Origin: a virus
Virus record (IMG/VR): IMGVR_UViG_3300045988_183236
Location: 35,677-99,676 of that record
Reading direction: 5' to 3' (one strand)
DNA length: 64,000 nucleotides
Below, in pieces: positions 7,795-58,911 of the stretch. Under the pieces are notes generated by a model that was not told the DNA's origin, searched no databases, and saw only the letters and a program-made list of their open reading frames with translations. Each line of letters begins with the position of its first letter. Positions within the stretch are counted from its first letter, which is position 1. The position numbers and the translations under genes were made by a program.

Positions 7795-8334
7795 TTAGGC
7801 TTCATTGAGCCATTTCTGAGTGATATCCTTGATTTGGTTCTGGAATTTCGGGTCCGGCAATGCTTTTCTTTCTGTCCAAATTGAATTTCGGACGATTGGG
7901 TAATCGTACACGACGCCGTCAACGATATAGGGCCAAAGAACAACTTCACCACCCACAAGCCAAAGTTTCTGGATTTTGACGGGTTTCTCGTATCTTGTGA
8001 GCCAGCATTCACTGGTCACGACAGAATCCGCCACATATTTCTGTGTTTCTTCCTCGGTCAAGAGATTCGGGTCTTCGTCCTTGATGTTGTACATTCGGAC
8101 AATGAACGGTAACGGCATGTCCTTGGAGTATTTTTTGTTCCGACGCAGCTCAGCGAGCAGGAATTTTGAGACAAAATGCGCAATGCCGATGCTGGTCAGG
8201 CAGTCGTCAAGGGTATGCCCAAGACAAATTCTTGGGATTTCCTGGTCCTCCCCTTTCATCCGATTCGTTGGTATCTGCGGAACGACATCGTCCGGCAGGC
8301 ATCCGGTGTCTGCCATGATATGATAAAGAATCAT
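7795..8334 (-). CDS. hypothetical protein
   Basis: 179 aa ORF. Confidence 0.45.
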   Translation of the reverse strand: MILYHIMADTGCLPDDVVPQIPTNRMKGEDQEIPRICLGHTLDDCLTSIGIAHFVSKFLLAELRRNKKYSKDMPLPFIVRMYNIKDEDPNLLTEEETQKYVADSVVTSECWLTRYEKPVKIQKLWLVGGEVVLWPYIVDGVVYDYPIVRNSIWTERKALPDPKFQNQIKDITQKWLNEA

Positions 8335-8468
8335 TGATGTTTCCTCCTGAAATAGAAAAAATAGCAGGCCCTCAAGAATCGAGAGTCTGCTTTGTTTGCA
8401 CGATTTATTCTATCGTGCAGTAGATGTTTTGCTTGGTCCGCACACGCAGACAGCCCAACAGGCATCGT

Positions 8469-8936
8469 TCAGAACGTCTTGTCGTCAGGAACTAGCAGAT
8501 ACATCCAGGACTGTGGTGCTCGCTTAACGCCGAGCTCTCGCAGCGACATATCCATAGATTGGACATCAGAAACGTTCCAGCAATAAAGAGTGCCGGACTT
8601 ATTGCCGTATGCAATCAGCTCATTTGCGGTAAGGCAGCTGTCCTTCACGAATTGAGCGGTCTTTGCGGTCACTTCCGTACCAATAGCATATGCCGGAAGC
8701 TCACGCAGGCAATCGAGTGTATTGATGTCACGGCAAACAAATGCGGCAGTCACTTTTCCAGCACCACCGTTAGCTTTGGTTTCGTAGCAAAATACTACAA
8801 AAGGATAGCTAATTTCCCACGGCATAGTTTTTCGGACCTCAATAGTCTTTTCTCCGCTCAGAATTTTTTCAAGCCATTGCTTCTTGATGCTGAGAAGAAC
8901 GGCTTTATTCGAGTTAATTTCAAGGGCTTTATTCAT
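8469..8936 (-). CDS. ASCH domain protein
   Basis: LSIKKQWLEKILSGEKTIEVRKT matches ASCH/PUA-like N-terminal signature. Confidence 0.6.
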   Translation of the reverse strand: MNKALEINSNKAVLLSIKKQWLEKILSGEKTIEVRKTMPWEISYPFVVFCYETKANGGAGKVTAAFVCRDINTLDCLRELPAYAIGTEVTAKTAQFVKDSCLTANELIAYGNKSGTLYCWNVSDVQSMDMSLRELGVKRAPQSWMYLLVPDDKTF

Positions 8937-9239
8937 ATGTCAACAACCTCCACCTGAAGGAGGGGCTTAAAATCCCGCAGGATTCCAATAATTCTCACTC
9001 AATGGATTTTTACAGCACGGTTCCGTCCGTGCGACCAAGTATCTATGAGCTTTCACCGCTGTTGCGGGCGGCATAGCGGGAGTGAGGAAATTGGATTTAT
9101 GCGGGATATAATCCCAACAATCCAACATTACGTATGTTTATAGCGGCATTGTGGTCGCGGTTATGTGTTGTACCGCAGCCACTGCATGTCCAACTTCTGT
9201 CTGCCAGTGTAAGGTCATCTTTTATAAGACCACCATTTC

Positions 9240-9791
9240 TTAAACTATGTATGCATCACAATGCTGCTTTTTCCAGTACAGGTCATCGATGATATCCGAA
9301 AGGTACTGGTTTTGCTTTAAGACGAAAAACGATACCGGATTATGCTTTACGATGAAACCAAGTCCCGTTCGTTCATCGTAAATATCTTTCATGTGGTTCA
9401 GCCACTTTGAAAAATTTTTGATATGGGAATTATCTCGAAGTATAAACCTGCCGAACCATTGCTGCTTAATGATTTGTCTTTCCTTTGCTCGCTCTTTGGA
9501 TTCTTGTTCATTCCATACGATATTGTCAGGTTCGACAATTACATAGGGAATCTTCTGCCTATCCATTTCGTCTATGACGGATTCCGTTTGGCAAACGAAG
9601 ATAAAATCATATTTTCCTGATTTTGCCTCTTTCATGAAGCTATTTATGTATTCTTTTTCCCATCCGGCAGTTTTTTCATAAGTAGAACTATCACTATCCC
9701 GCATTGAATAGCCATATTTGTTTTGGTGATTCGCGAGCCATGTTTTTCCGCAGCCCGCAAATACGCTTACGACCATTGTTCGTCTCATCAA
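9240..9791 (-). CDS. P-loop NTPase/kinase-like protein
   Basis: Walker A-like VFAGCGKTW near N-terminus; 183 aa. Confidence 0.5.
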
Positions 9792-9885
9792 TCAGGGCAA
9801 TTCCTTTCTTTGAAAATAAAATATATTTTGTATGGCAACAAAGACCATAGCGACTATGAAAGCACCACTACGAATAGAGGCGCTC

Positions 9886-10163
9886 TGGCAGCTAAAAAGA
9901 AGCTGCTCACTCCTCCGAAGAGGGTAAAAATCCTTCCCCAAGGTCATAAACGGTTTAATACAGCCACACCTGTCGGCTTTGCCTCAGCTTTACGTGATGT
10001 GTTGTCTTAGAGCGTGCAGTTAGGATTAACGCCACACGGTAACTATCTATTCGCTTATAACGGAGTGCTCGAAGCACTTATGGTAGTCAACATATCCTTA
10101 CGGACACTTCTAAAGTGCAGACTTGCCGAAGCAAGCCTGCGACTTTAGTCGTGGGTTATTGAC
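9886..10163 (-). ncRNA. IscB-type omega-RNA-like element, second copy without adjacent nuclease gene
   Basis: About 93% identical over 278 nt to the region immediately upstream of iscB (12017-12294); ends with the same CCCACGAC-UAAA-GUCGCGGG-type hairpin; contains a GCAGGCUUGC-UUCG-GCAAGUCUGC hairpin. Confidence 0.5.
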
Positions 10164-10177
10164 TTGTTTTTGGAGCG

Positions 10178-10429
10178 TCACCATTTATGGAACGGGTTCA
10201 GAAGTCCGGGACGGTATTCGTTATCGACATACATCTTGATGTCGTTATCGTCCAGGGCATCCAAAATGTTCATCCAGCATTCCGCTTCGACGTGCATCTC
10301 GCCGTCCATTTTCAAGGCCCTGTCGCACTGAACTAAGTCTGCGCGAAAAGAATTCACATAGAAGCAATCTTTTGCGGCAGCCGCGAACCTGGTAAAACTG
10401 TTCTTGGTATTTGTGGTCATAGTATTCAT
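10178..10429 (-). CDS. hypothetical protein
   Basis: Likely start MNTMTTN at 10429 (GAAAGGATG RBS); own promoter 10574-10601 and terminator 10470-10508 upstream. Confidence 0.4.
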   Translation of the reverse strand: MNTMTTNTKNSFTRFAAAAKDCFYVNSFRADLVQCDRALKMDGEMHVEAECWMNILDALDDNDIKMYVDNEYRPGLLNPFHKW

Positions 10430-10469
10430 CCTTTCTGAAATATTTTTGTTTCTAATCAATACATACAAA

Positions 10470-10508
10470 AAAAGAAGCAGGCCCTCAAAAGAGAGTCTGC
10501 TTACTTGT
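10470..10508 (-). terminator. rho-independent terminator
   Basis: RC: AAGCAGACUCUCUUUUGAGGGCCUGCUU followed by CUUUUUUUG. Confidence 0.55.
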
Positions 10509-10573
10509 GCATGACAGATTGTTAATTTAATGTTCAATTAGGAGGTAAGTGATGGTATCTGTTATGCAATTAT

Positions 10574-10601
10574 TATTTTAGGCGGTTCGCACATTTGTGC
10601 A
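10574..10601 (-). promoter_or_regulatory. TGTGCGAAC-class promoter
   Basis: RC TTGCAC-aaa-TGTGCGAAC-cgcc-TAAAAT. Confidence 0.5.
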
Positions 10602-10712
10602 AGTGGCTTTTTTAGCTTCGTTTGTTTTTTGGCATCGCGTTGGTCCAGCCCTTAGATTTGTGTTTTTCAGGGGCATCATCAATCATGGCAAGGATACCCG
10701 CGACTTCAGTCG
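10597..10712 (-). pseudogene. 3' fragment of gene disrupted by IscB element (paralog of 45355-46242 family)
   Basis: Minus-frame translation ...AGILAMIDDAPEKHKSKGWTNAMPKNKRS* resembles ...FGIVLVGPAKGSHDDFTFLTLPAWAKEN of the 295-aa paralog. Confidence 0.4.
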
Positions 10713-10729
10713 TGGGAGGATTTGCCCAT

Positions 10730-11992
10730 TCACTTCCTTTCGATTAAATAGTTTGTTGCAGGCTCTAATAGTCGCAGTTTTTTAAATGAAATGCTATTCG
10801 TAATGGTTGTACCATCGAATTTTCTTAAAGCGAAATATCCCGATGACCTGCGTCCTGAAATAAAACATTCCTGCTCGTTATAGAGCACCTTGTCCCAGAG
10901 GCGAAATCCTTTAACGATATAGGGCGCTTGATTTGCTTTTCGAATTCCACCTTTCAAGATTTTCGCTTTATGGATTTGCCGATTGTGGTGTCGAATTGCC
11001 TTCGTGCGGTAACAAACACTGCAAGGTTTAGCTAGTGGATGCTTGCTAATACAACGGGCATCGTTAACATGGCTTTTCTTGATGTCGTTTTGTTCACGTA
11101 ACAACTTGGTTATATAGCCATATGTGTTTTGTACTGGAATATTAAGTTCGTTGCGTAGGCGTGTCAGTAGTGTGTTACGCATGATACCCATAAAAGCCGC
11201 ATCGCGAAGCGTTTTACCACGTTTTTTGCCGTCAAGTGTTATCTTCCCTTTATGGAGGTTGTTGTGGCAAGTGGTACACAAAGTGATAAGGTTGCTTGGT
11301 GCATTACCGCCCACCTTACGGCTTTCAAAGTGATGTACATGCAGCTTGACGGTTTTCTTTGCGGTGGTATGAGCACCACAGCATTGGCATGTATAGTTAT
11401 CACGCTTCAAAACATACTGGCGAACATTGTATTCGTCGTACATCTCACCGAGTTGGTAGTCGGTTCCTACCGGCAGAGGCTTTCCGGCAAGCATTGCTTT
11501 TAAGCGTTGCGTGTCAAACTCTGCAGTTTCTACTCTTACAAGAGTGATAGGCAAAATTCGACAGATGCGCTTGATAACAGTAATGTGCTCTTGGATTTTT
11601 ACTTCTACCGAAGGTGCAAGCCAACCCTTATGTTTGCTGTGTACACGGTTATTGAATCTTGGCGCACGGTAACGAGTTTTGCGATTTCGCCTTGAACGGC
11701 GGTTCTGTCTGCGCGTAGATAGCAATTCTACTACATCGTTGCGAGGAGTGAACTCCTCACTGTAGAGTTCGCGCTTCTCTGTAGATGCAGACAAGCCAAC
11801 ATGCTTGCTGCCCGCATCTACACCAAGAGTGATAGGCTGTTTGTATCCCGCACTTCCATGCAGGAGTTTGATGGTGAACGGCGTGCGTTTTACAACGCAA
11901 GCTTTTTGCTGTTTCAACAAGATGCGAGCCTTTCCGGGTGAGCAAGGCATCAAGGGCTCGCCGCGCTTGTTAAGTACATACGCATATTGCAT
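10730..11992 (-). CDS. iscB: IscB RNA-guided endonuclease (PLMP, RuvC-I, HNH, RuvC-III)
   Basis: N-terminal ...RGEPLMPCSPGKARILL (PLMP domain), LGVDAGSKHVG (RuvC-I), CQCCGAHTTAKKTVKLHVHHFESRKVGGNAPSNLITLCTTCHNNLH (HNH), HVNDARCISK (RuvC-III); 420 aa. Confidence 0.8.
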   Translation of the reverse strand: MQYAYVLNKRGEPLMPCSPGKARILLKQQKACVVKRTPFTIKLLHGSAGYKQPITLGVDAGSKHVGLSASTEKRELYSEEFTPRNDVVELLSTRRQNRRSRRNRKTRYRAPRFNNRVHSKHKGWLAPSVEVKIQEHITVIKRICRILPITLVRVETAEFDTQRLKAMLAGKPLPVGTDYQLGEMYDEYNVRQYVLKRDNYTCQCCGAHTTAKKTVKLHVHHFESRKVGGNAPSNLITLCTTCHNNLHKGKITLDGKKRGKTLRDAAFMGIMRNTLLTRLRNELNIPVQNTYGYITKLLREQNDIKKSHVNDARCISKHPLAKPCSVCYRTKAIRHHNRQIHKAKILKGGIRKANQAPYIVKGFRLWDKVLYNEQECFISGRRSSGYFALRKFDGTTITNSISFKKLRLLEPATNYLIERK

Positions 11993-12294
11993 GATGCTAT
12001 GCTCCTTTCGATAAAATTGCAGCTAAAAGGAAGCTGCTCACTCCTCCGAAGAGGGTAAAAATCCTTCCCCAAGGTCATAAGCGGTTTGATACAACCACAC
12101 CTGTCGGCTTTGCCTCAGCTTTACGTGATGTGTTGTCTTAGAGCGTGCAGTTAGGATTAACGCCGCACGGTAACTATCTATTCGCTTATAACGGAGTGCT
12201 CGAAGCACTTAGGGTAGTCAACATATCCTTTCGGACACTTCTAAAGCGTAGACTCGCTGATGCAAGCCCGCGACTTTAGTCGTGGGTTATTGAC
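11993..12294 (-). ncRNA. omega-RNA scaffold of the IscB element
   Basis: Non-coding ~300 nt immediately 5' of iscB start on same strand, the IscB-specific arrangement; conserved copy at 9886-10163; guide would be RC of the flank beyond 12295. Confidence 0.55.
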
Positions 12295-12295
12295 G

Positions 12296-12636
12296 ACAAA
12301 ATCCCTATATGGCAGCCGCATCATAATATCGGAATAAATCGGTGCGTCCTCAGTCTCTGCCAATGTTCTGAGAAATTCCGAAGCGAAATTGTACACGGTT
12401 TTTGCTGCACGCCAATAGTTTGCGACGTATGCCATCGAAAATTGTGCGGCAAGTTCCCCATCTATCGCATCGGCGGCAATCTGACCGTTTTGGATAAGGC
12501 GGTGCCCAAGCGGAATAAATTCTTTCACATAATAGTCATAGCCCTTATCCAGCAGCTTGTTGGCCCCAGAATTCAAAAGAAACTGACTGCTCTGCTCGGC
12601 ATACCAAAGAGCGCTGTTCACAATTATATTGTCCAC
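12296..12636 (-). pseudogene. 5' portion of gene disrupted by IscB element insertion
   Basis: ORF 12241-12636 N-terminal 113 aa homologous to residues ~60-115 of the 45355-46242 protein (AKTVYNF..LPYRDF vs TKTVYDF..LPIRDF); last 18 codons are IS-derived. Confidence 0.55.
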
Positions 12637-12645
12637 AATGATACC

Positions 12646-12873
12646 TCACTGCCAATACAGTTTTATTGTTCCGTCAGCAAAAAGAATCTGGCTGTACTCC
12701 TCGCCGTCAAGGACAATGCAGCGGTCCTCTCCGTGCTTGTGAGCGCCGGTACAATACACAGTTTTATTATCGATAGCCGGAATGGACGGTGCTTTTGCCA
12801 AAACCGACTGACCGTGCATGGCGCAGATGTCTAAGAAAGAAATGATGTGGTCGCCCACCCTGGAAGCCTCCAA
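12646..12873 (-). CDS. hypothetical protein
   Basis: 75 aa ORF. Confidence 0.4.
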   Translation of the reverse strand: MEASRVGDHIISFLDICAMHGQSVLAKAPSIPAIDNKTVYCTGAHKHGEDRCIVLDGEEYSQILFADGTIKLYWQ

Positions 12874-12878
12874 TCTAA

Positions 12879-13550
12879 TTACAGTGCTCTAATTTGGAAA
12901 GAACCTTCAGCACGCGGCAATGGCTCGTCTGTGACTTTCAGAACGGAGCTATCTCGTTTCTCTGTCGCATATCGAATGGTTTTAAGAATCTCGTATGCCA
13001 GCTTGCTGTTGTAGGCAAGTCCTGAATTTGAAATACCAAAGTTCCCATTCCAACCAAGCCTTATCTTTTTGAGCTGTGGAATCAGAAGGTCACGGGCTTC
13101 GAGGACCCCCACCCCATTCCAGCGTGCATCATGGTACGCTTGAAGGTGCTGCTCATCGTTACCAGAAATATCAAGTGCTTCATAGATGACGCCAAATTGA
13201 CCCATCAAAACACGAGAGTATGTATCCAGCGCATCGGCAACGGCTTTCCAGGAAGAGACATCTAAGCTAACACTGTATTTATATGGAGCGTCCTTTCCCG
13301 GCAGTTCCCGTGCATGATGCAGTATATCTTCCAGAATGTCGCTGCACTTGTTAGATAAACTTTTGACAGGTGCCGTTACGTTTACAGCTGTCAGAGCAGC
13401 GCAAGCACTTGCAATGTCTGCTTCGCTTGCTCCATAAGCCTCTCCAACCTCTTTGCAGATAGAGGAAAAATCGTTGCTATAAAACGTTATCATGATGGCA
13501 AGAGCGTGCAGGATGAAAGAGTACTGCTTGCTCGTGAAATCAATGTACAT
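12879..13550 (-). CDS. hypothetical protein
   Basis: 223 aa ORF; promoter motif 13583-13610 upstream. Confidence 0.5.
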   Translation of the reverse strand: MYIDFTSKQYSFILHALAIMITFYSNDFSSICKEVGEAYGASEADIASACAALTAVNVTAPVKSLSNKCSDILEDILHHARELPGKDAPYKYSVSLDVSSWKAVADALDTYSRVLMGQFGVIYEALDISGNDEQHLQAYHDARWNGVGVLEARDLLIPQLKKIRLGWNGNFGISNSGLAYNSKLAYEILKTIRYATEKRDSSVLKVTDEPLPRAEGSFQIRAL

Positions 13551-13582
13551 ACGGCAAAAATCCTTTCATTTTCTACACTTTA

Positions 13583-13610
13583 ATTATACCGCGATTCGCA
13601 ATTTCTCACA
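13583..13610 (-). promoter_or_regulatory. TTGCGAAT-class promoter
   Basis: RC TTGTGA-gaaa-TTGCGAAT-cgcg-GTATAAT. Confidence 0.45.
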
Positions 13611-13839
13611 ACGGAAAGCGTTAAATGGTAACAGTTTATACACATTCTTTTGCAATTGACATTCTCCCCCGCCTAAGCCCAACGGCTATAGACGGGGTAC
13701 TCTGCCTTCAAATTTCATAGATGAATCAGTGGCAAATGAAGGCACTTTTGCTTTCTGGACAATTTTGTTGCTTTGCTGTATGATTAAAGTACAACAATTA
13801 GGGCAATACAAAAATCGATAACGACGAGGTACTGATAAG

Positions 13840-14211
13840 ATGGACGCGACAATGCAGACGGTTCTCCGGCTCCATGAGCAAGGTATACCTAGAAGAACCA
13901 TTGCCAAACGTGCAGGCATCTCATTGCAGAAAGTGCGCAAAATACTGATTACAGCCGGGGCATGGTCAGATGAAACATCAGAAAAAATCGGGAAGCTGCG
14001 TGCGAACGGTATGTCAGTTCCTGAAATCGCAGAAGAATTGGGTGTAAAAACCAATACTGTTTGGAGCTATTTGCCATACAGCAAAGGCATGTATAATCAA
14101 GAATATCCGACCATTAACGCCATTCGAGTCCGAAATTCGAAGCGAAAAGCAAAAGAAAAAGCCCTCACCTGCACGGATACCGCACAGAATGAGGGCAGTG
14201 GCGCTTGCTGA
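13840..14211 (+). CDS. tandem-HTH DNA-binding protein (two resolvase/sigma-r4-like HTH units)
   Basis: IPRRTIAKRAGISLQKVRKIL and MSVPEIAEELGVKTNTVWSYL repeats; same repeat family as 23696-25827 and 47511-48050. Confidence 0.55.
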   Translation: MDATMQTVLRLHEQGIPRRTIAKRAGISLQKVRKILITAGAWSDETSEKIGKLRANGMSVPEIAEELGVKTNTVWSYLPYSKGMYNQEYPTINAIRVRNSKRKAKEKALTCTDTAQNEGSGAC

Positions 14212-14286
14212 AGGATTCGAACCTTCGGACAGTCTCCCATCGTCGGTTTTCTGGACCGATTTCATCAACCACTCGAACAAGCAAGC
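14199..14286 (-). tRNA. tRNA, Ser-type (long variable arm) with non-canonical anticodon loop CCAGAAA (C33; anticodon AGA?)
   Basis: RC gives GCTTGCT acceptor / AGCAAGC-G-CCA, T-arm GAAGG-TTCGAAT-CCTTC, anticodon arm TCGGT-CCAGAAA-ACCGA; 88 nt. Confidence 0.55.
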
Positions 14287-14289
14287 AGA

Positions 14290-14379
14290 TGGCGCAGAGG
14301 GTGAGATTCGAACTCACATGCCGCGATTTCCGCGACGGCAGCTTAGCAAGCTGCTGCCCTACCGTTAGGCGACCTCTGC
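14290..14379 (-). tRNA. tRNA-Ser(GCT)
   Basis: GCAGAGG...GCAGC-TTGCTAA-GCTGC...long variable arm...GTGAG-TTCGAAT-CTCAC-CCTCTGC-G-CCA; 90 nt. Confidence 0.7.
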
Positions 14380-14410
14380 ATAATGCACCTTTTTGACATA
14401 GGTGCTTGTA

Positions 14411-14484
14411 TGACCCCTGGCAGACTCGAACTGCCGACTCCACATTGAGAGTGTGGTGACTTAGGCCAACTTGTCGAAGGGGCC
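14411..14484 (-). tRNA. tRNA-Glu(CTC) (CCA not encoded)
   Basis: Acceptor GGCCCCT/AGGGGTC, anticodon arm CCACA-CTCTCAA-TGTGG, T-arm GGCAG-TTCGAGT-CTGCC. Confidence 0.55.
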
Positions 14485-14487
14485 TTA

Positions 14488-14574
14488 TGGTGTGCCGGGC
14501 TGGATTCGAACCAGCGAACCGAAACGGAGCGGTTTTACAGACCGCCTGCTTTAACCTCTTGCATACCGACACAT
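14488..14574 (-). tRNA. tRNA-Tyr(GTA)
   Basis: GTGTCGG acceptor, GCGGT-CTGTAAA-ACCGC, long variable arm, TTCGAAT T-loop, CCA. Confidence 0.7.
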
Positions 14575-14575
14575 A

Positions 14576-14651
14576 TGGTGCTCCCGGCTGGAATCGAACC
14601 AGCGACACGCGGTTCTTCAGACCGCTGCTCTACCAACTGAGCTACAGAAGC
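14576..14651 (-). tRNA. tRNA-Phe(GAA)
   Basis: TAGCTCAGTTGGTAGAGC D-arm, GCGGT-CTGAAGA-ACCGC, TTCGATT T-loop, CCA. Confidence 0.7.
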
Positions 14652-14652
14652 A

Positions 14653-14732
14653 TGGTGACCCGTGTGGGTTTCGAACCCACAATAACCTCCGCCTTGAAAG
14701 GGCGGCAACTCTACCAATTCGTCCAACGGGCC
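14653..14732 (-). tRNA. tRNA-Glu(TTC) (80 nt, long D/variable region)
   Basis: GGCCCGT acceptor, CCGCC-CTTTCAA-GGCGG, GTGGG-TTCGAAA-CCCAC, CCA. Confidence 0.55.
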
Positions 14733-14761
14733 ATATATAGCCGCAATCCTGCGGCGAGGGT

Positions 14762-14983
14762 TTATGCGATGACAAGGATGTCATCTATCTTGGTATCCAG
14801 CATTGCTGCTAATATCACAAGGTTATCGATGGTGGGAAGCGCTGTTCCGGCTTGCCATTTAGCAACCGCCTGCGGAGACACACCGAGCATGTCTGCCACA
14901 TCCTTCACCTTGATGCCTGCTGCCTTTCGCAGGGCCTTGATATTGGCACCTGTCTGCTGGATATCAATAGTAGGAACGTTCAT
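14762..14983 (-). CDS. XRE-family HTH transcriptional regulator
   Basis: ALRKAAGIKVKDVADMLGVSPQAVAKWQAGTALPTIDNLVILAAML = Cro/C1-type HTH; embedded in tRNA array. Confidence 0.65.
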   Translation of the reverse strand: MNVPTIDIQQTGANIKALRKAAGIKVKDVADMLGVSPQAVAKWQAGTALPTIDNLVILAAMLDTKIDDILVIA

Positions 14984-15240
14984 TTTTCTTGCTGCCTTTC
15001 TGTATTGCAGGCAACAAAAAAGCTGCCTGCCGAAATCTCGACAAGCAGCTATGACATGCAGTTATCGCTTAGAAGACGCACCGCATCTGTACATGGTCTG
15101 TTTTTGCCTGTCGAGGAGTATGAGAAATAAAACTGCGTTCAAAGGACATGAACTCAGAATATTCGTAACTATACTCATACGGCATGACATTAACAGTGTT
15201 GCACAGCATTTTGGGGTATCTCCTTTCGTTTCGTTCTGAT

Positions 15241-15272
15241 ATTATTATACCATGTTTTCGCAAGTTCGCAAT
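15241..15272 (-). promoter_or_regulatory. promoter, TGCGAA-class variant (TTGCGA-N16-TATAAT)
   Basis: RC ...TTGCGAACTTGCGAAAACATGGTATAAT upstream of XRE gene. Confidence 0.35.
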
Positions 15273-15316
15273 CAACTTGTGGTTTAGTTTTTTGGTCTGT
15301 ATACTCTCCAAAACAA

Positions 15317-15350
15317 AAAGCCGCCTCTTATGTGAGGACGGCTTTTCTTA
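15317..15350. terminator. bidirectional rho-independent terminator at end of tRNA block
   Basis: AGCCGCCTC-TTATGT-GAGGACGGCT flanked by A-run and T-run. Confidence 0.55.
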
Positions 15351-15353
15351 TTG

Positions 15354-15429
15354 TGGCAGGGGTAACACGACTCGAACATGCAACAAGCGGTTTTGGAGAC
15401 CGCTGCTCTACCACTTGAGCTACACCCCT
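15354..15429 (-). tRNA. tRNA-Trp(CCA)
   Basis: AGGGGTG-TA-GCTCAAGTGGTAGAGC-A-GCGGT-CTCCAAA-ACCGC...TTCGAGT...G-CCA. Confidence 0.7.
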
Positions 15430-15437
15430 ATATAGAT

Positions 15438-15511
15438 ACTCCAGCTGGGAGTCGAACCCAGAGTAAAACGGGACTTAAAGCCGCCGCGTTTGCCAGTTTC
15501 GCCACTGGAGC
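15438..15511 (-). tRNA. aberrant tRNA-like gene / pseudo-tRNA (good acceptor and T-arm, no canonical anticodon stem; loop region contains UUUAAG)
   Basis: GCTCCAG...CTGGG-TTCGACT-CCCAG-CTGGAGT-A; anticodon region GGCGGCTTTAAGTCCCG cannot form 5-bp stem with 7-nt loop. Confidence 0.4.
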
Positions 15512-15514
15512 ATA

Positions 15515-15590
15515 TGGCGGGTTGTACAGGGTTTGAACCTGCGGCCCACGGATTAACGGTCCGTTGCTCTACCAGCTGAGCTAACAACCC
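15515..15590 (-). tRNA. tRNA-Asn(GTT) with C33 (loop CCGTTAA)
   Basis: GGGTTGT-TA-GCTCAGCTGGTAGAGC-A-ACGGA-CCGTTAA-TCCGT...GCAGG-TTCAAAC-CCTGT...G-CCA. Confidence 0.65.
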
Positions 15591-15619
15591 ATAAATGGCA
15601 GTTGTTGTACTGCCGGACA

Positions 15620-15697
15620 TGGTACTCCCCGAGGGATTCGAACCCTCAAAACGGTGCGGTTTGAGCGCACTGTGTCTGCCAATTTCACCAGAGGAGC
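15620..15697 (-). tRNA. tRNA-Leu(CAA) with Leu-type D-arm but short variable arm (78 nt)
   Basis: GCTCCTC-TG-GTGAAATTGGCAGACAC-A-GTGCG-CTCAAAC-CGCAC-CGTTTT-GAGGG-TTCGAAT-CCCTC-GGGGAGT-A-CCA. Confidence 0.55.
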
Positions 15698-15700
15698 TTA

Positions 15701-15776
15701 TGGCGGGCGTAGCAGGATTTGAACCTGCGACAAACGGATTAACGGTCCGCCGCTCTGCCTACTGAGCTATACACCC
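15701..15776 (-). tRNA. tRNA-Asn(GTT) with C33 (loop CCGTTAA), second copy
   Basis: GGGTGTA-TA-GCTCAGTAGGCAGAGC-G-GCGGA-CCGTTAA-TCCGT...TTCAAAT...G-CCA. Confidence 0.65.
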
Positions 15777-15807
15777 ACAAAAGTGGCAGATAATGCTCTG
15801 CCGGGCA

Positions 15808-15883
15808 TGGTGCGCTCGCGGGAAATCGAATCCCGAACACCCCGATTAAAAGTCGGGTACTCTACCGATTGAGTTACGAGCAC
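15808..15883 (-). tRNA. tRNA-Lys(TTT)
   Basis: GTGCTCG-TA-ACTCAATCGGTAGAGT-A-CCCGA-CTTTTAA-TCGGG...TTCGATT...A-CCA. Confidence 0.7.
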
Positions 15884-15963
15884 TTGTCGCGCATCTTCCG
15901 TGCCTTGCTTATGGGAACACAGCTTCGAAGAATCTCACTTCCGATGCGCATGAAAGTGAGCGT

Positions 15964-16037
15964 TGGCCGAGAATGGTCGAGTCGAACAACCGTTGTCAGG
16001 GTCAAAGCCTGATGCCTTACCGTTTGGCGAATCCTCG
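15964..16037 (-). tRNA. tRNA-Gln(TTG)
   Basis: CGAGGAT acceptor/ATTCTCG-G-CCA, TCAGG-CTTTGAC-CCTGA, GGTTG-TTCGACT-CGACC. Confidence 0.6.
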
Positions 16038-16430
16038 AATATACATTATGTATAATAGCATACACTTTAATAAGCCTGGCTGGAATTCACTCCAGCGGCA
16101 TTAGAGTGACCTGATTCTGATTTTCTGCATCAAAAAAGCACCCATCAGGCGTTGTGCGTCTGACAGGTGCTCATATCGTGCAGAGTATGGAAAACAACCG
16201 ATACTTGGATGATTTTATTCAACCATCACTGCACTATGATTTGCACAAACAGACAACACAAAACAGCCGAAGAGATTCCAATTGCTCCACAGCTTTTGCA
16301 ATTTATTCTGTTTGTTCATCATAGCAGCAAACATCGTGCAATTTTCCTTTCATCAAATTCAGTGTCTATATTATACAATGTGTAAAATACAAAGTCAAGG
16401 CTTTTCATAAAAATAATAGCAGGCCCACGC

Positions 16431-17180
16431 TTATTGTTTGTCTGGCTTCCAAGCCACAATCCGCACTATCACATTCGAGAGCAGTACGTCCTCATACGAG
16501 CACAGTACGCCTAAAGCGTTAGCCATTCTGGACTCGTAGTCAGCCAAAGCCAGGTCGATGGGCGCGTTAATTTCAGCAGAACCATCCGTTGTTCCCAGAA
16601 CGGGAGGCCTCGTGCTTTTCCTTTTGACGCTCCAGTTGTTTGCCAGCAAGTAGTCGTACAGTGCATACGGATTAACTGCGCTTATACCTTCTCTCGATGA
16701 CAGTATCGTATATGCCCGCTTGTATTTTCTGGTTCTTTCCAAGTCTCTTTTAGTTGGAGTGTGAGGGAGCCTGGTTAAGTCCATGTTGCTGCGCAGGTCC
16801 GAGAGCTTCACTTTGACAGCAATCGAATTTTGCTGAATATACCAAAGATATTCAGCATACGATATACCCTTGCTATGGGTCAACGCACTCACAGCGTCAG
16901 CAACCTCTTTTGGAAACCCCGTTCTGATGTCTTCTATTGTGACGGACGTATCTTCGACCGTATCATGCAGAAATGCCACAGCCTCGGCTATTGGGTCACC
17001 TTTTACGCCTTCTGCTACAACCGTAACGTGCGCTTTGAAGTAGTCCTGCCCAGCCTTGTCTTTTTGCCCGGCATGAGCCTTAACAGCCCAAGCTCTGGCT
17101 TTGGCAACCATCTCAATGTCAGACTGCTTCCACTCTAAAGGAATCGTAATGTTCACTTGTACGCTTGATTTTTTTGCCAA
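16431..17180 (-). CDS. RelA/SpoT-type HD-domain hydrolase (small alarmone hydrolase-like, (p)ppGpp pyrophosphohydrolase family)
   Basis: N-terminal AHAGQKDKAGQDYFKAHV and AVAFLHDTVEDT motifs = RelA/SpoT HD hydrolase signature; 249 aa, no synthetase domain. Confidence 0.7.
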   Translation of the reverse strand: MAKKSSVQVNITIPLEWKQSDIEMVAKARAWAVKAHAGQKDKAGQDYFKAHVTVVAEGVKGDPIAEAVAFLHDTVEDTSVTIEDIRTGFPKEVADAVSALTHSKGISYAEYLWYIQQNSIAVKVKLSDLRSNMDLTRLPHTPTKRDLERTRKYKRAYTILSSREGISAVNPYALYDYLLANNWSVKRKSTRPPVLGTTDGSAEINAPIDLALADYESRMANALGVLCSYEDVLLSNVIVRIVAWKPDKQ

Positions 17181-17359
17181 CTATATCACCTCATACATAT
17201 ATTATGTATGTATTCTGTGCCGTCAGTCAAACTGCTCAACGAATATTTTACAAAAAATCAAAAAGAGCCATTCATCCCACAGGCAAGCCTGCAGGTTTTC
17301 TGGCTCTCAATTATAACCCTATTCGATATAGCAATCTGTTGCCTTGTATTGCTCACAAA

Positions 17360-17386
17360 AACAAAAAAGCCGGGAAGTCCCGGCAA
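17360..17386 (-). terminator. rho-independent terminator after tRNA-Ser(TGA)
   Basis: RC GCCGGGACUUCCCGGC + UUUUUUGUUUUUG. Confidence 0.55.
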
Positions 17387-17389
17387 ACA

Positions 17390-17478
17390 TGGCGGCCAGA
17401 GTGGGATTCGAACCCACGGACGTTTGCGGCGTCGCTGGTTTTCAAGACCAGTTCCTTAAACCACTCGGACATCTGACC
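17390..17478 (-). tRNA. tRNA-Ser(TGA)
   Basis: GGTCAGA...CTGGT-CTTGAAA-ACCAG, long variable arm, GTGGG-TTCGAAT-CCCAC, G-CCA; 89 nt. Confidence 0.7.
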
Positions 17479-17561
17479 ACAAAAGGATGGGGCGGGACCG
17501 AAATCCCGCCCCACAGCAAGGAGAAAAAACTATCGATTACCGTTAGTTAGAGGATGGCAAA

Positions 17562-18695
17562 TTAGTGGATGCCCAGGGAAGCGGCATAAGCAGCTTCACG
17601 AGCGGCAACCTGTGCCTGCAGAGCAGCGATGGAAGCGGCATAAGCGGCTTCACGCTTTTCAGCAGCAGCCTGAGCTTCAGAGGTAGAAGCGTACTGGGGT
17701 TCATTGCCGGCCAGAGTGCCAGCATAACCCTTGACGCCATCAGCGCCCTTGACAGTCAGGACTTCGTGACCACAATGGTCACAGACGTAAACGTTACCTT
17801 TGCGGGTCCAGTTGTGATAGCCACAGCTGGTGCAGACGGTGTACTCATTGCCCCAGGTGCCATTGGCAATAGCGGCGGCAATTTCACCGTGCTCAGAGAC
17901 TTCAACGTTCTTGTGAGGAGCGGTCGGAGTAGTGGTGGTAGTACCGTTGCCCTTGTTGGAGCCGGTAGAAGTGTTGTCCTTACCGGTGTTGTCCTTATCG
18001 GGGGCCACTACGTCGCCCTTGTCATCGGGAGTGGTGGTGCCGCTGTCGCCGGTATTGTCGCCCTTGTTGTCGCCCTTATCGTCGGGGTTGGTGACATCGC
18101 CCTTGTCATCGCCCTTGTTGTCATCCTTGCCGTCATCGGGAGTGGATGCAGAAGTGGCTTTCAGGGTCAGGACGTTGTCGTGGATGTCGTCGCCCAGGTA
18201 GTAGAACAGGCGGTCATGGTTCAGGCTCTTGCTGGATGCGGTGTAAGTATCACCGGAATCCGTGGTCCAGGCTTCAACGCTCTGACCATCAACGCTGCCG
18301 GGGAAAGTGGCAGTGTCAGTTTCGGTCAGCACAGTGTTGCCGTCAATCTGATAGTTGATGGTGATGGAACGCGGATTACCTTCGGCCGCATAGCAGGAAG
18401 TGATGCCGTCAGCGGTGAACCACTGGTCAACTGCATCGTACGGCAGAGTGTCGCCGGGATAGTAGTTGTAGGTGTAGCCGCCGTGGCCCTGCAGGGTAAT
18501 CCAGTAACCGTAGTCATACTGGCTTGCCGGGAACGTCATAGAGCCGCCCGGAGCCAGGTCCTGGGAAGAACCGTTGCTGAAAGAGAAATGATAGGTGTCG
18601 CCGGTGGCTGCGAATGCTGCGACAGGCAGACAAGTTGCCATCATACCGGCTGCTGCAATCCCTGCGATTGCTTTGATGATTTTCTGATTACTCAT
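17562..18695 (-). CDS. secreted protein with Asp/Lys-rich (PDDKGD) repeats and C-terminal Cys4 zinc-ribbon-like motif
   Basis: Start MSNQKIIK (AAAGGAG RBS), signal peptide ...LPVAAFAATG; low-complexity DDKGD repeats; CTSCGYHNW...CDHCGH. Confidence 0.55.
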   Translation of the reverse strand: MSNQKIIKAIAGIAAAGMMATCLPVAAFAATGDTYHFSFSNGSSQDLAPGGSMTFPASQYDYGYWITLQGHGGYTYNYYPGDTLPYDAVDQWFTADGITSCYAAEGNPRSITINYQIDGNTVLTETDTATFPGSVDGQSVEAWTTDSGDTYTASSKSLNHDRLFYYLGDDIHDNVLTLKATSASTPDDGKDDNKGDDKGDVTNPDDKGDNKGDNTGDSGTTTPDDKGDVVAPDKDNTGKDNTSTGSNKGNGTTTTTPTAPHKNVEVSEHGEIAAAIANGTWGNEYTVCTSCGYHNWTRKGNVYVCDHCGHEVLTVKGADGVKGYAGTLAGNEPQYASTSEAQAAAEKREAAYAASIAALQAQVAAREAAYAASLGIH

Positions 18696-18795
18696 GCTGT
18701 GTACTCCTTTGCTTTTTTGATTTTTTCGTCTATTTATCTGCATTTATTCAGATACCGGTTTGAAAGAAATCAGCCGCAGCTTTGCTGCGTTGCCC

Positions 18796-18855
18796 ACCAT
18801 CTGCCACGTGGAGGCTTTCTCATGGATGGTTGACGAAGCAGATATGTGCTTCGCC
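18796..18855. other. conserved covarying hairpin motif, instance 1 (core GCCACGTGGAGGC) plus second hairpin
   Basis: ACCATC-tGCCACGTGGAGGCtttctcat-GATGGT then CGAAGCA-gatatg-TGCTTCG; in 5' leader of gene 17562-18695. Confidence 0.4.
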
Positions 18856-19054
18856 AGTGTCGCAACCGTCTTCGCCACTCGACACAATTTCGGTTTGAAT
18901 TTATCCCCGTAAAATCGCATGTCCATGCTGCGCGGAGAGGATAAAATTCTTCGTGGTATGGTTTCGGAGTTCCGCGCCTGATTGGCCGTACTACACGCAA
19001 TGCAGTACAATACCCCAGATACCTTTGGCGAAAGGAAGCGAAAGGGTGTCTGGA

Positions 19055-19130
19055 TGGAGAAGGGAGATGGCCTCGAACCATCGATACCCTGCTTTGCGGC
19101 AGGTGCTTTATCCAGCTAAGCTATCCCTCC
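19055..19130 (-). tRNA. tRNA-Cys(GCA)-like with non-canonical anticodon loop (6-nt CGCAAA or 8-nt CCGCAAAG; no U33)
   Basis: GGAGGGA-TA-GCTT...AAGC-A-CCTGC-CGCAAA-GCAGG-GTATC-GATGG-TTCGAGG-CCATC-TCCCTTC-T-CCA; 76 nt. Confidence 0.5.
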
Positions 19131-19160
19131 ATGATGGCGGGTCAAGCCCGCCAAATAGCG

Positions 19161-19553
19161 TTACGCAAACTGGAAGTCGCCGTACTGAGTCACGGCGCGT
19201 TCCAGGCGCAGAGGAATGGTTTTTGTGCTCTTCTGAGTGATGTCTTCGCGTGCTACCTGAGCTTCACTCACGCCAGCCGCCTGCAGGACTTCATACAGAT
19301 TGGAAGGACCAGTACCAGCATAACCGCAAGTCAAGCCATTAACCTGAAGTGTAAAGCCGTGCAGATGCGGTGCCAAGCCGGGCACGAAATCAAGTTCGAC
19401 AATGACCTCATCGCTCTTATCGTTCACACGATTGACCGAGATGGCGCGGACGTTCTGATTGCCAAGCATCCCAATCAGCTTTTTGGCTGCTGCAGCGGTT
19501 TCAATGGTAGTTGTACCTTCGACATTGATAATTGCCTGTTCCATAAGTTTCAT
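19161..19553 (-). CDS. hypothetical protein
   Basis: 130 aa ORF between tRNA genes. Confidence 0.45.
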   Translation of the reverse strand: MKLMEQAIINVEGTTTIETAAAAKKLIGMLGNQNVRAISVNRVNDKSDEVIVELDFVPGLAPHLHGFTLQVNGLTCGYAGTGPSNLYEVLQAAGVSEAQVAREDITQKSTKTIPLRLERAVTQYGDFQFA

Positions 19554-19582
19554 CTCCTTTCTATTATCGCTTCATTGGGTAA

Positions 19583-19658
19583 TGGGGCTTGATGGCAGGT
19601 TCGAACTGCCGACCTGCGCGTTACGAATGCGCTGCTCTACCAACTGAGCTAATCGAGC
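19583..19658 (-). tRNA. tRNA-Thr(CGT)
   Basis: GCTCGAT-TA-GCTCAGTTGGTAGAGC-A-GCGCA-TTCGTAA-CGCGC...GGCAG-TTCGAAC-CTGCC-ATCAAGC-C-CCA. Confidence 0.65.
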
Positions 19659-19930
19659 ACGATAGGGTGTTTTATGCTGGTCACCCCTTGAGCGAGAAGC
19701 CAACTCGCATCCAGCACCATTCGATAGCTGCATCGATGGATTCTGCTTTATACCCTTTCCGCTGTTTTCCGGTCTTATTCGCGACTAACACCGGGACTTT
19801 CGAATACTTTCAGGCACAGCACCTGTTTGTCTATTATTTTTGAGGCTGTCTCATCGACATTTGGACAGCGGACCACAAGTGGACCATGCTCACCAAGTTT
19901 AACGTCGTGGCGTACGGTGACTGCGACGTG

Positions 19931-20005
19931 TGGAGCAAGTAGCGGGGGTCGAACCCGCGTCTCCGCCTTGGAGGGGCGGAGTATTAGCCGTTATACGATA
20001 CCTGC
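19931..20005 (-). tRNA. tRNA-Gly(TCC) with C33 (loop CCTCCAA)
   Basis: GCAGGTA-TC-GTATAACGGCTAATAC-T-CCGCC-CCTCCAA-GGCGG...GCGGG-TTCGACC-CCCGC-TACTTGC-T-CCA. Confidence 0.6.
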
Positions 20006-20374
20006 ATAAAATTGCGGGTGAACCCTCACTTAGCCCCGCCATGACATCCGTTTAGTAGGTCGTCATCCCCGGATGTCATCTTCACACCACCTGACAATCT
20101 TGCGAACCTCATCGTTGACGATACGCGAGAATCCAAGAAAGCGCTTGGGTGTTGGTCAACTTCAAATTTTGAGCCCTGTCGTTGATTCCCTGTCAAATCG
20201 GGTTAACGGTTGTCGTTGGGCTGTGTGTGAGACTGCGGCGAAACTTACCAGTTGCCGTGCAGCAATCTCGCCTTTACGGCTGTGTCGCGTCTGGATGCGC
20301 CCCGACTTGACGGGGATGCTCGTACGTTTGCATGCTTCTAAGACATTCGTCAGCAGCCGCAAGAGCCGCTGTCC

Positions 20375-20408
20375 GCCACCCGCCACGAGGAGGCCGCCTT
20401 AATGGGTG
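20375..20408. other. conserved hairpin motif, instance 4 (core GCCACGAGGAGGC)
   Basis: CCACCC-GCCACGAGGAGGCcgccttaat-GGGTGG; flanked by direct repeat ctgtccgcca. Confidence 0.35.
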
Positions 20409-20478
20409 GCATGCTGTCCGCCAGATGTTGTGTATAGCATCGTATCATGTGATTTCGATACATCCAACGGATAGCGTC

Positions 20479-20554
20479 TGGAGCTGGAAATCGGACTTGA
20501 ACCGATGACCGACTGATTACAAATCAGTTGCTCTACCAGCTGAGCTAAACCAGC
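20479..20554 (-). tRNA. tRNA-Thr(TGT) (two mismatches at base of acceptor stem)
   Basis: GCTGGTT-TA-GCTCAGCTGGTAGAGC-A-ACTGA-TTTGTAA-TCAGT...ATCGG-TTCAAGT-CCGAT-TTCCAGC-T-CCA. Confidence 0.55.
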
Positions 20555-20600
20555 AAATACAAACATTAGCCAGATGCCCGGAACACGGAAACATCTGTTG

Positions 20601-20660
20601 CCCACCGTCCGCCGCGTGGAGGCTGTTTGCTTGGACGGCTGGCGCGGAGTTACCCGCGCC
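20601..20660. other. conserved hairpin motif, instance 2 (core GCCGCGTGGAGGC) plus GC hairpin
   Basis: CCGTCC-GCCGCGTGGAGGCtgtttgctt-GGACGG then GGCGCGG-agtta-CCCGCGCC. Confidence 0.4.
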
Positions 20661-57335: not shown

Positions 57336-58880
57336 GTGCAGAACGAAAATGGTGTTTTGGCAGAGCAGGAAGAAATTCACAATGCGTTAGTCGATAAATA
57401 CGTTCCCATATGGGATAAGAAATACCGGAGCAAGGGCGAGTCTATCTGGGTATTTCAGAGAAGAACCCTGTCCAGCGCTTGCCAGGTTGCGACGACATTG
57501 CATGACATGGATTTTGGGAAAGCATCTACTTTCCTCTTTCACCTGGTCCGTGAAGCTGAGGAGTGCAAACCCATCATTGAGGCCGTCAGCTCTCAGGTAG
57601 AGCTTGCCATGGCAAACCCCGACAAGTTCATTAAAGGCTATCATCAGTTTTTGCAGGGGCTCACAAAGCCCATCAAGAAGAATAAGGACTATGCTCTGTA
57701 TTTCAAGGCTATTGCTTATGCGCAGGAATGTGTTCATTCAGGATTATCCATTGACGGAAATGTGGAACGTAATGATTCTGTCCTGTACGCGGTAATCGAT
57801 ATGCTGATGCAGGGGAGCGAATACCTCAAGCCTCAGGAATTCGATATTGTGAACAACATTGTCGGTATCTCAACTGAGAACGAGCCAATCATCATCCGGG
57901 ACCCCTATCCCCTCGCCGATGTTCCTGTCTATTATAGTGATGCTCTTTTCAATAATCGGCCATACGATAAATGCGATTTTCAGATTTCTGAAGATAGACG
58001 CCTGGATATGGTCTTTTCGTACTACAAGCGTTATGGCTATGAGAATGTAGCAGATTTCGATAGCATCAACGACCTCGCTTTGCTCTCGCATTTGTATACA
58101 AACACGGTTCTTTCGATGGCCACCTATGTGAACGAGTATACCGTGGATATGCTGCCGGACAAGCCGCTGATTGAGAATACTCCGAACATGTGGTCCTGGT
58201 GGCCAAAGCCCATCTCACCCAAATATACGACAGAGTTTCTGAAAGATACGCTGCACCATCGCCGCAGAACTCTTCCCGCCAACGGTGCATTGTTTCAGTT
58301 TGATGTCTGCCAGCTGATACAGGAAATTAAGCTGAAAGAGACTTGCCGCGACAACGAGATTGTGTGTCTGTATAAAATCGTAACCAAGTTCGGTGACCTG
58401 GCCGGATACTATAACACAAGCACCGAGTGGTTTTATATTTTGACTGACCGAGCTCAATTTCCAGAGCTGGTTGACAGCGTCACGAATCTGATTCTCTGGC
58501 TGTACACTTCTCTCGCCTGTGATTTGCCGGATGTCCTGCCCACTGATGCGTCGTTCCGGTCTTCGTTTGTGACACACGCGGATGCTCCATTCGGGATTCG
58601 TTGTCTGATGATTGGCGGAAAGCCCCGCGATTATCGCAAGAAAGGCAATGGTGACGACGAGCCGCTGCGGGTGTTCGACAAGTCCAAATATGATGCTTCG
58701 TCCAAAAACATCAATGGTTTCATTCGCCACCTGCCTGCCGGACAGAAAGCAAGCGAACGTGCCATCCTGATAGCTGAAAGCTATGGCTATGAGCTGAAGA
58801 GTGATGAAACTTATGTCACGCCGTTTGTGAGAAGACAATGGCTGAAAAAGAAAACTGAAGAGTCAATAATCCACGACTAA
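57336..58880 (+). CDS. hypothetical large protein (co-operonic with HD protein)
   Basis: 514 aa; ATG 8 nt after upstream stop. Confidence 0.5.
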   Translation: MQNENGVLAEQEEIHNALVDKYVPIWDKKYRSKGESIWVFQRRTLSSACQVATTLHDMDFGKASTFLFHLVREAEECKPIIEAVSSQVELAMANPDKFIKGYHQFLQGLTKPIKKNKDYALYFKAIAYAQECVHSGLSIDGNVERNDSVLYAVIDMLMQGSEYLKPQEFDIVNNIVGISTENEPIIIRDPYPLADVPVYYSDALFNNRPYDKCDFQISEDRRLDMVFSYYKRYGYENVADFDSINDLALLSHLYTNTVLSMATYVNEYTVDMLPDKPLIENTPNMWSWWPKPISPKYTTEFLKDTLHHRRRTLPANGALFQFDVCQLIQEIKLKETCRDNEIVCLYKIVTKFGDLAGYYNTSTEWFYILTDRAQFPELVDSVTNLILWLYTSLACDLPDVLPTDASFRSSFVTHADAPFGIRCLMIGGKPRDYRKKGNGDDEPLRVFDKSKYDASSKNINGFIRHLPAGQKASERAILIAESYGYELKSDETYVTPFVRRQWLKKKTEESIIHD

Positions 58881-58911
58881 AGTCGCGGGTCTCCTTGCCC
58901 TGATTTATGAA

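Follow-up and report, generated by a model that had tools for sequence, protein, structure and literature searches.

A nuclease-less omega-RNA near a phage-borne iscB gene is probably the decaying relic of a second transposon insertion

The window analysed here, a stretch of viral DNA 64,000 nucleotides long, carries one complete IscB element (element 1) and a second, solo copy of its omega-RNA that has no nuclease gene attached. We think it likely that a second, independent insertion of the IscB transposon family (IS200/IS605, ISC), now decaying as a relic, brought in this solo copy as its guide-RNA gene. The parts of the two elements are listed below in the nomenclature of Meers et al., in which the omega-RNA side is the transposon RE and the target-adjacent motif (TAM) flanks the LE. 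The length of the putative guide, 16 nt, is assumed from published IscB systems.

9789–10163 (minus strand): whole solo element, an IscB-less, omega-RNA-only IS200/IS605 (ISC) derivative of 375 nt
10164–10179 (minus strand): putative 16-nt guide flank of the solo copy, GACGCTCCAAAAACAA, adjoining the scaffold on its 5' side and overlapping the stop codon of the upstream 119-aa ORF
9888–10163 (minus strand): solo omega-RNA scaffold, its 5' end at 10163 being the transposon RE boundary (GTCAATAA...)
9801–9887 (minus strand): 87-nt tail between the omega-RNA and the far end, ending in GAAAGGAA, which matches the last iscB codons
9789–9800 (minus strand): remnant tip of the far (LE, TAM-side) end, TTGCCCTGATTG, with 42 bp including the LE hairpin deleted just upstream
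9785–9788 (minus strand): ATGA motif serving the solo element as TAM; the ATG in it probably doubles as start codon for the 181-aa P-loop ORF downstream (9240–9788)
12295–12310 (minus strand): guide flank of element 1, ATATAGGGATTTTGTC
12019–12294 (minus strand): iscB-linked omega-RNA of element 1, HEARO score 84.6 bits
10730–11992 (minus strand): iscB gene, 420 aa, the only IscB in the window (Pfam RRXRR 4e-59, HNH 3.5e-7)
10680–10729 (minus strand): far (LE) end of element 1, with the hairpin CCCACGACTGAAGTCGCGGG at 10697–10716, a near-repeat of the RE hairpin

The two scaffolds form a direct repeat whose copies, 9888–10163 and 12019–12294, align over 276 nt without gaps and with 13 mismatches (95.3% identity; blastn E = 1.6e-126 inside the window). 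With nhmmer the match stretches out to 9886–10163 (278 nt) at about 95% identity. The first-pass annotation, which had reported a 278-nt block about 93% identical to the iscB-linked region, was thus right about the repeat, and its figure should read about 95%. Its statement that no IscB ORF adjoins the solo block also holds, the only IscB in the window being encoded at 10730–11992 on the minus strand and tblastn finding no second copy there. The homology does end against unrelated flank, as had been said: it stops exactly at 10163/10164 and 12294/12295, where GACGCTCCAAAAACAA stands against ATATAGGGATTTTGTC.

Both copies match the Rfam family HEARO (RF02033), the RNA later recognised as the IscB omega-RNA, on the minus strand. 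The covariance-model alignment that had been proposed as a check shows each of them spanning the full model, positions 1–211 of 211. The iscB-linked copy scores 84.6 bits at 12055–12294 (minus strand; gathering score 83), and the solo copy 71.1 bits at 9924–10163 (minus strand; E = 1.2e-13). Solo copies therefore fall under the 83-bit gathering cut-off, with 71.1 bits in the window and 75.7 bits for the variant in a sibling contig (L023), this cut-off being a curation threshold. Overall, they reach 71–76 bits as against 79–85 for the three IscB-linked family members tested, and some IscB-linked relatives likewise score below 83 bits. The homology of the solo copy to HEARO that this alignment indicates is not in doubt despite the sub-threshold score. 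Its predicted fold has a minimum free energy (MFE) of −92.2 kcal/mol (z = −3.6), and, judged by sequence and modelled structure, the second copy is a real IscB omega-RNA gene. The HEARO pair was missed by a gathering-mode Rfam scan of the whole window and found in an E-value scan of a 3-kb stretch. That the linked copy, at 84.6 bits above the threshold of 83, went unreported in the 64-kb gathering-mode scan is probably due to speed filters; a gathering-mode scan that finds nothing in a long sequence does not prove absence.

The solo copy departs from the usual HEARO arrangement in that it is not directly upstream of, and co-oriented with, an IscB/HNH ORF. Directly 3' of it on the RNA strand lies the 181-aa P-loop ORF, which has no IscB domains, and the only iscB gene is upstream. 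We found no convincing promoter directly upstream of the solo omega-RNA, and the terminator-like U-tract that follows the last hairpin of the linked copy is absent from the solo copy.

The boundaries of the solo element were drawn from the end of its homology to element 1, from sibling phages with the full far end, and from independent copies elsewhere. It consists of the omega-RNA-side end, the complete omega-RNA, the 87-nt tail and the 12-nt far-end tip, followed by ATGA. The RE is identical to that of element 1 (GTCAATAACCCACGACTAAAGTCGC at 10139–10163, minus strand) and includes its subterminal hairpin. The LE hairpin is gone from the window copy, in which a deletion of 42 bp has left the tip only. 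Tip and TAM together match the LE tip of element 1 at 15 of 16 positions, and ATGA follows the LE tip at all three copies of the family in the window. There is no similarity to iscB within 9789–10163, with which one 51-aa ORF call (9792–9947) overlaps. The insertion shares the orientation of the 119-aa ORF, whose stop codon it closely follows, and comes right before the ATG of the next gene, at the site ...CAA|ATGA. In two element-free loci (L124 and L125), homology with the window starts at ATGAGACG. As to the origin of the tail, neither element 1 nor any other IscB locus fetched showed similarity to it, and its translation weakly resembles the IscB C-terminus. A 9-nt inverted match between the tail and the 3' end of iscB was considered and set aside as being at chance level.

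A megablast search of positions 8000–14000 against GenBank phages returned nothing, and relatives came from IMG/VR, where the 25-nt RE motif identified 103 loci with about 33 distinct flanks and the downstream P-loop protein 27 loci. The solo omega-RNA is present in every one of the 25 IMG/VR relatives that share the orf119–orf183 junction. An IscB element at the site it occupies in the window is found in 17 of these 25 and is missing from the other eight. Three of the relatives (L117, L119 and L120) preserve the undeleted solo far end, ...GAAAGGAAGTGAATGGGCAATTCCTCCAACGGATGAAGTCGGGGGTATCC|TTGCCCTGATTG, preceded by GAAAGGAAGTGA; they read ...GAAAGGAAGTGAATGGGCAATTCCTCCAACGGATGAAGTCGGGGGTATCCTTGCCCTGATTG|ATGA, that is, the last iscB codons and a stop codon, then a complete but degenerate LE. 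Because these three keep the complete LE, the window copy must bear a 42-bp deletion that removed the LE hairpin, and this deletion is shared by the window and most of the relatives.

Members of the same IscB-less family occur at other sites. One locus (L216) has the same junction of omega-RNA and tail (AGCTGC|CAGAGCGCC) and an intact LE hairpin in a different flank, ATGAACACCG. Another (L068) repeats this junction and the order of omega-RNA, tail and LE at yet another site (flank ATGAAAAC), with a 60-nt deletion inside the omega-RNA, and a third (L053) retains tail and LE alone. The LE hairpin is present in the family copies at the L216 and L068 sites, and the shared architecture and junction at other sites, together with the intact hairpin, show that the IscB-less family moved as a unit. 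By its sequence, then, the solo copy is a member of a once-mobile, PATE-like, omega-RNA-only family that spread in this form. The first-pass annotation had offered, as one of two readings, the relic of a second element that lost its nuclease; this reading is borne out by the element's own tail with the last iscB codons, its LE tip and TAM, and the IscB-less copies at several sites.

Further deletion derivatives of the transposon family exist. At the site with flank TCCAGAGCGGAGATACACAC (for example L003:8081), omega-RNA and iscB are both present in 4 of 21 copies, and 15 copies can be recognised only by the first ~40 nt of the RE; this one site therefore holds more deletion or replacement derivatives. 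The sibling contigs also carry a second, distant IscB family (L023:8875–10220, L064:7921–9266 and L027:7901–9299; 36–39% identity). These proteins have their own HEARO RNA (59–92 bits), and sibling phages can therefore host more than one IscB/omega-RNA system.

Element 1 is complete. On the minus strand it starts at 12294 with GTCAATAACCCACGACTAAAGTCGCGGG, continues with the omega-RNA and iscB, and ends after the LE hairpin in TATCCTTGCCATGATTG, which is followed by the TAM ATGA at 10676–10679; this LE tip with its TAM is common to other copies. The iscB reading frame is intact in all 18 related contigs in which it was compared, variation falling mostly at third codon positions. Seven siblings without element 1 (L106, L116, L117, L119, L120, L122 and L128) read ...GATTTTGTC|ATGAATCTGCC at the homologous position. 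These empty sites consist of the guide followed by ATGA, the match in L128 being exact over the 16-nt guide, and the linked guide therefore has real targets, with TAM, in circulating relatives. In six of the seven, positions 4 and 7, which lie in the half away from the TAM, differ from the window guide (ATACAGAG... versus ATATAGGG...); this could be ordinary divergence or could reflect target variants that weaken cleavage.

In element-free siblings, the position of element 1 is taken up by about 1.2 kb of phage DNA, as a comparison of window positions 10672–12294 with L128:3879–5105 shows. Encoded there are most of a 179-aa protein and, of a 358-aa protein, the C-terminal two thirds; the 131-aa ORF of the window (12241–12636) is the truncated remnant. 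Past the TAM, the window reads ATGATGCCC|CTGAAAAAC and L128 reads ATGAATCTGCCC...1.2 kb...CTGAAAAAC. From this comparison of junctions, the insertion was accompanied or followed by an adjacent deletion.

The window holds one more, much reduced copy of the same family.

58862–58906 (plus strand): 45-nt mini relic with RE start, one hairpin and LE tip, followed by the TAM ATGA at 58907–58910

Its RE start is GTCAATAAT. The relic lies at the 3' end of a 514-aa ORF (57336–58880), the last codons and stop codon of which fall inside it, and it is found at the same site in five IMG/VR loci. Its structure suggests that the RE and LE hairpins, which are nearly identical, recombined to produce it.

Elsewhere in the window, eighteen tRNA genes lie on one strand at 14199–20639 (minus strand), and ARAGORN calls an odd tRNA-like gene with a two-base anticodon at 19055–19130. 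An HDV-like ribozyme (RF02682, 50 bits) at 20559–20639 adjoins tRNA-Thr at 20479–20554. Several proteins near the tRNA cluster match PHROG families, which supports a phage origin.

The family shows a consistent target-adjacent motif. ATGA starts 21 of the 22 distinct LE flanks, 16 of which read ATGAA, and the reverse complement of this ATGA(A) motif corresponds to TTCAT, the TAM reported for GstIscB. All three window copies are co-oriented with the gene upstream of each. A bias in orientation has been published for IscB elements, whose omega-RNAs need transcription starting outside the element, and the co-orientation seen here fits this need. Among the roughly 33 RE flanks and 22 LE flanks in the loci collected (L001–L217), many guide-side flanks end in a sequence resembling a ribosome-binding site (GGAGG or AAGGA plus spacer), after which the TAM ATGA supplies the start codon, and one further A, of the next gene. 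Insertions of the family thus often fall precisely between an ATG and the ribosome-binding site that serves it, and the solo copy is placed in the same way with respect to the ORF at 9240–9788.

The solo guide, unlike that of element 1, has no target that we could find. It does not recur elsewhere in the window at up to two mismatches, and a search of IMG/VR for the uninterrupted site (the guide followed by ATGAGACGAACAATGG with a gap of 0–30 nt) gave no match. The check that had been proposed, whether the guide flank matches another locus, thus came out negative in the window, as did the search for an empty site in IMG/VR. The 20-mer made up of guide and TAM gave only unrelated matches, in two JGI contigs (metagenomes) and one cyanobacterial MAG (GTDB genomes), and we estimate that three is about the number expected by chance. 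The searches of IMG/VR, JGI metagenomes and GTDB genomes required exact matches and covered sampled sequence only. The guide flank itself is invariant in 21 aligned relatives, and one further locus, L052, has a 1-nt deletion there.

How far the solo RNA has drifted can be judged from the 13 differences between the two window copies, which were polarised with an alignment of 34 distinct family sequences. Eleven of them are variants also found in members from other insertion sites, and at several it is the linked copy that holds the rarer state. Only G26A and C83A are specific to the solo lineage, at positions that are invariant in 26 sequences from other sites. G26A falls in the 3' arm of the RE hairpin; in the RNAalifold consensus of the subfamily, A26 pairs with U45 in the UUCG-loop hairpin and no pair is broken in the solo copy. 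C83A breaks one pair of a long-range helix in the HEARO model, and this helix is formed in the MFE structure of the linked copy (81–85 with 222–226) and missing from that of the solo copy. Total predicted stability is equal, at −91.9 kcal/mol for the linked and −92.2 kcal/mol for the solo RNA (z about −3.6).

These data also bear on what had been said about a hairpin described as perfectly paired in the solo copy and degenerate in the linked one. The hairpin GCAGGCUUGC-UUCG-GCAAGUCUGC does form in the solo copy, with 10 pairs including one G-U, and to call its counterpart degenerate is an overstatement, since the linked copy has one C-A mismatch and more G-U pairs. The accompanying suggestion of compensatory substitutions is not supported: none of the 13 differences is two-sided, the changes in stems being one-sided transitions (G-C/G-U, U-A/U-G). 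Across the family, too, the UUCG-loop hairpin varies by one-sided transitions only, and there are therefore no compensatory double changes.

Polymorphism among relatives distinguishes the two RNAs. In 18 genomes, 62 of the 84 segregating sites of iscB are at third codon positions, and the linked omega-RNA has 3 segregating sites in 276 nt as against 62 in 421 iscB third positions (Fisher p = 2e-11), which indicates that the protein and its linked RNA are both strongly constrained. The solo omega-RNA, compared over 21 contigs, has 10 segregating sites in 276 nt versus 5 in 302 flanking third-codon positions (p = 0.19), a comparison of low power because background diversity is low. In the 17 genomes with both elements, the solo copy has 4 in 276, versus 0 in 360 and 8 in 553 in the two flanking ORFs. 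Purifying selection on the solo omega-RNA is thus not detectable in these comparisons, its diversity matching the local background, where diversity is so low that they have little power.

We propose the following history. A derivative of the family would have lost iscB and kept both transposon ends and a full omega-RNA, inserted at ...CAA|ATGA and gone to fixation in this phage lineage; loss of the LE hairpin would have come afterwards. Since excision by TnpA needs both ends, the deletion of the LE hairpin has presumably left the solo copy immobile. While the element was young, transcripts reading through from the upstream gene would have given rise to an omega-RNA with the 5' flank GACGCTCCAAAAACAA as its guide. 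IscB supplied in trans could then have bound this RNA and cut genomes carrying the uninterrupted site next to ATGA, and such cleavage would have favoured retention or homing of the element and biased its inheritance. This original homing mechanism is probable by analogy with the established biology of the family. Now that the element is fixed and no uninterrupted target has been found, we consider it most likely that the solo copy is a relic, inherited passively and slowly decaying, and is not being kept up as a second guide. Several observations stand against the relic. The scaffold is still 95% identical to a constrained and presumably functional omega-RNA, breaks no pair of the subfamily consensus and folds as stably as the linked copy, and the guide flank does not vary among the 21 aligned relatives. 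Upstream, on the strand of the solo copy, there is also an intact iscB gene under purifying selection, with about 570 bp between its stop codon and the solo omega-RNA.

Alternatively, the phage could be maintaining the solo omega-RNA as a functional second guide, read-through from the 119-aa ORF loading it onto the upstream IscB so that co-infecting relatives without the insertion are cut. This would amount to RNA-guided homing or marker exclusion with two guides per nuclease, and we regard it as unlikely. Consistent with it are the near-intact scaffold (HEARO E = 1e-13, no broken consensus pairs, MFE equal to that of the linked copy), the strand and orientation shared with iscB and the upstream gene, the intactness of iscB under purifying selection, and the guide flank that does not vary among aligned relatives. 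Targets of guide plus TAM do exist in sibling phages for element 1, and the use in trans of PATE-borne omega-RNAs has been proposed in the literature (Meers et al., 10.1101/2023.03.14.532601). However, no uninterrupted target for the solo guide appears in IMG/VR, JGI metagenomes or GTDB genomes, and as the solo copy is fixed (25 of 25 relatives), the sampled genomes offer nothing to cut. Moreover, the adjacent IscB element is lacking in eight relatives that keep the solo copy. Of these, one contig was examined (L023), and the flank retrieved for it has only the 39%-identical IscB with its own HEARO RNA; three large solo-bearing contigs (105–161 kb) are not among the best 80 IscB loci listed. 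The diversity of the solo RNA is not below its neutral proxy, unlike that of the linked omega-RNA, and G26A and C83A at invariant positions and the lower HEARO scores point the same way.

The other reading of the first-pass annotation, a trans-acting extra guide for the single IscB, therefore keeps the nearly intact scaffold and the IscB just upstream on the same strand in its favour, and is opposed by the lack of detectable selection, the two derived changes, the want of a cognate target and persistence without an adjacent IscB. Use of the solo omega-RNA in trans by the nearby IscB is possible on these grounds and has no positive support. It is quite improbable that one IscB with two guides polices two loci against co-infecting relatives that lack the insertions. 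If true, this would be a natural two-guide IscB system in a virus and a conceivable step towards guide arrays.

It is also conceivable, though we think it very improbable, that the element now serves the P-loop gene as a co-opted cis-acting signal for its expression, the omega-RNA being an incidental 5' leader. The 42-bp deletion puts AAAGGAA, from the old end of iscB (window 9789–9810, minus strand), 13 nt before the ATG of the gene and, speculatively, may have restored a ribosome-binding site for it. Because the family inserts right before ATGA, often after flanks resembling ribosome-binding sites, its insertions would split genes from those sites, and the deleted form is the one found in most relatives. 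Yet 13 nt is a long spacing for a Shine-Dalgarno sequence, the three relatives with the undeleted form (L117, L119 and L120) have an intact gene, and co-option would account for the deletion and not for the retained omega-RNA. A recent local duplication of the neighbouring omega-RNA segment (a transposon-end duplication), which the 2.1-kb distance between the copies, their common strand and their 95% identity might suggest, has a negligible chance of being correct and is rejected, since the solo copy comes with a tail, an LE tip and a TAM of its own, the same IscB-less architecture occurs at other sites, 11 of 13 differences are common to other members with the linked copy in the less common state at several, and phages in which element 1 never inserted at this locus carry the solo copy as well.

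As an omega-RNA-only relic, the solo element closely resembles the PATE-like elements of Meers et al. 2023 (10.1101/2023.03.14.532601), according to whom PATEs 'often encode omega-RNAs', for which a nuclease would have to be supplied in trans. Like these, it has no nuclease or transposase gene, has ends homologous to those of protein-coding members and a complete omega-RNA at the RE, belongs to a family with copies at several independent TAM-adjacent sites, and would depend on TnpA and a nuclease in trans. Unlike them, it is borne by a phage and not by a bacterial chromosome, its window copy is a fixed, dead member without the LE hairpin, and it has the conserved 87-nt tail. The partner here would be IscB, whereas the sentence of Meers et al. 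names TnpB in trans.

With the OMEGA elements and HEARO RF02033 RNAs (GstIscB, OgeuIscB) the solo element shares a match to the full RNA model, a guide outside the RE boundary, a TAM that is the reverse complement of the GstIscB TTCAT, and co-orientation with the upstream gene; it differs in having no iscB ORF after the RNA and in scoring 71.1 against 83 bits. The ISC transposons (Kapitonov et al. 2016, PMC4810608) are IscB-encoding elements which, like the solo family, have subterminal hairpins at their ends, insert next to a 4-bp target and lack a transposase of their own, whereas the solo copy encodes no protein. Finally, the linked element recalls free-standing phage homing endonucleases and 'transposon non-restorative homing' (PMC13565253), in that siblings carry the guide-matching site with its TAM. 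Under such conditions, co-infecting relatives would be converted or excluded by a nuclease that the phage carries (PMC13565253). Here, in contrast to those endonucleases, recognition would be RNA-guided, and the solo copy has no target that was found.

Omega-RNA-only IS200/IS605 derivatives, and the borrowing of a nuclease in trans, have already been published, and by itself the finding of the solo element matters little, as this kind of element has been described. What the locus does offer, inside a single gut-phage lineage, is a clean natural series that runs from the full IscB element through an omega-RNA-only derivative to a 45-nt relic consisting of ends only, along with sibling genomes in which the guide-matching target of the full element, with its TAM, is uninterrupted. 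This makes the locus convenient for asking whether a phage-borne IscB homes between co-infecting phages, and how fast an omega-RNA decays once it has been separated from its nuclease.
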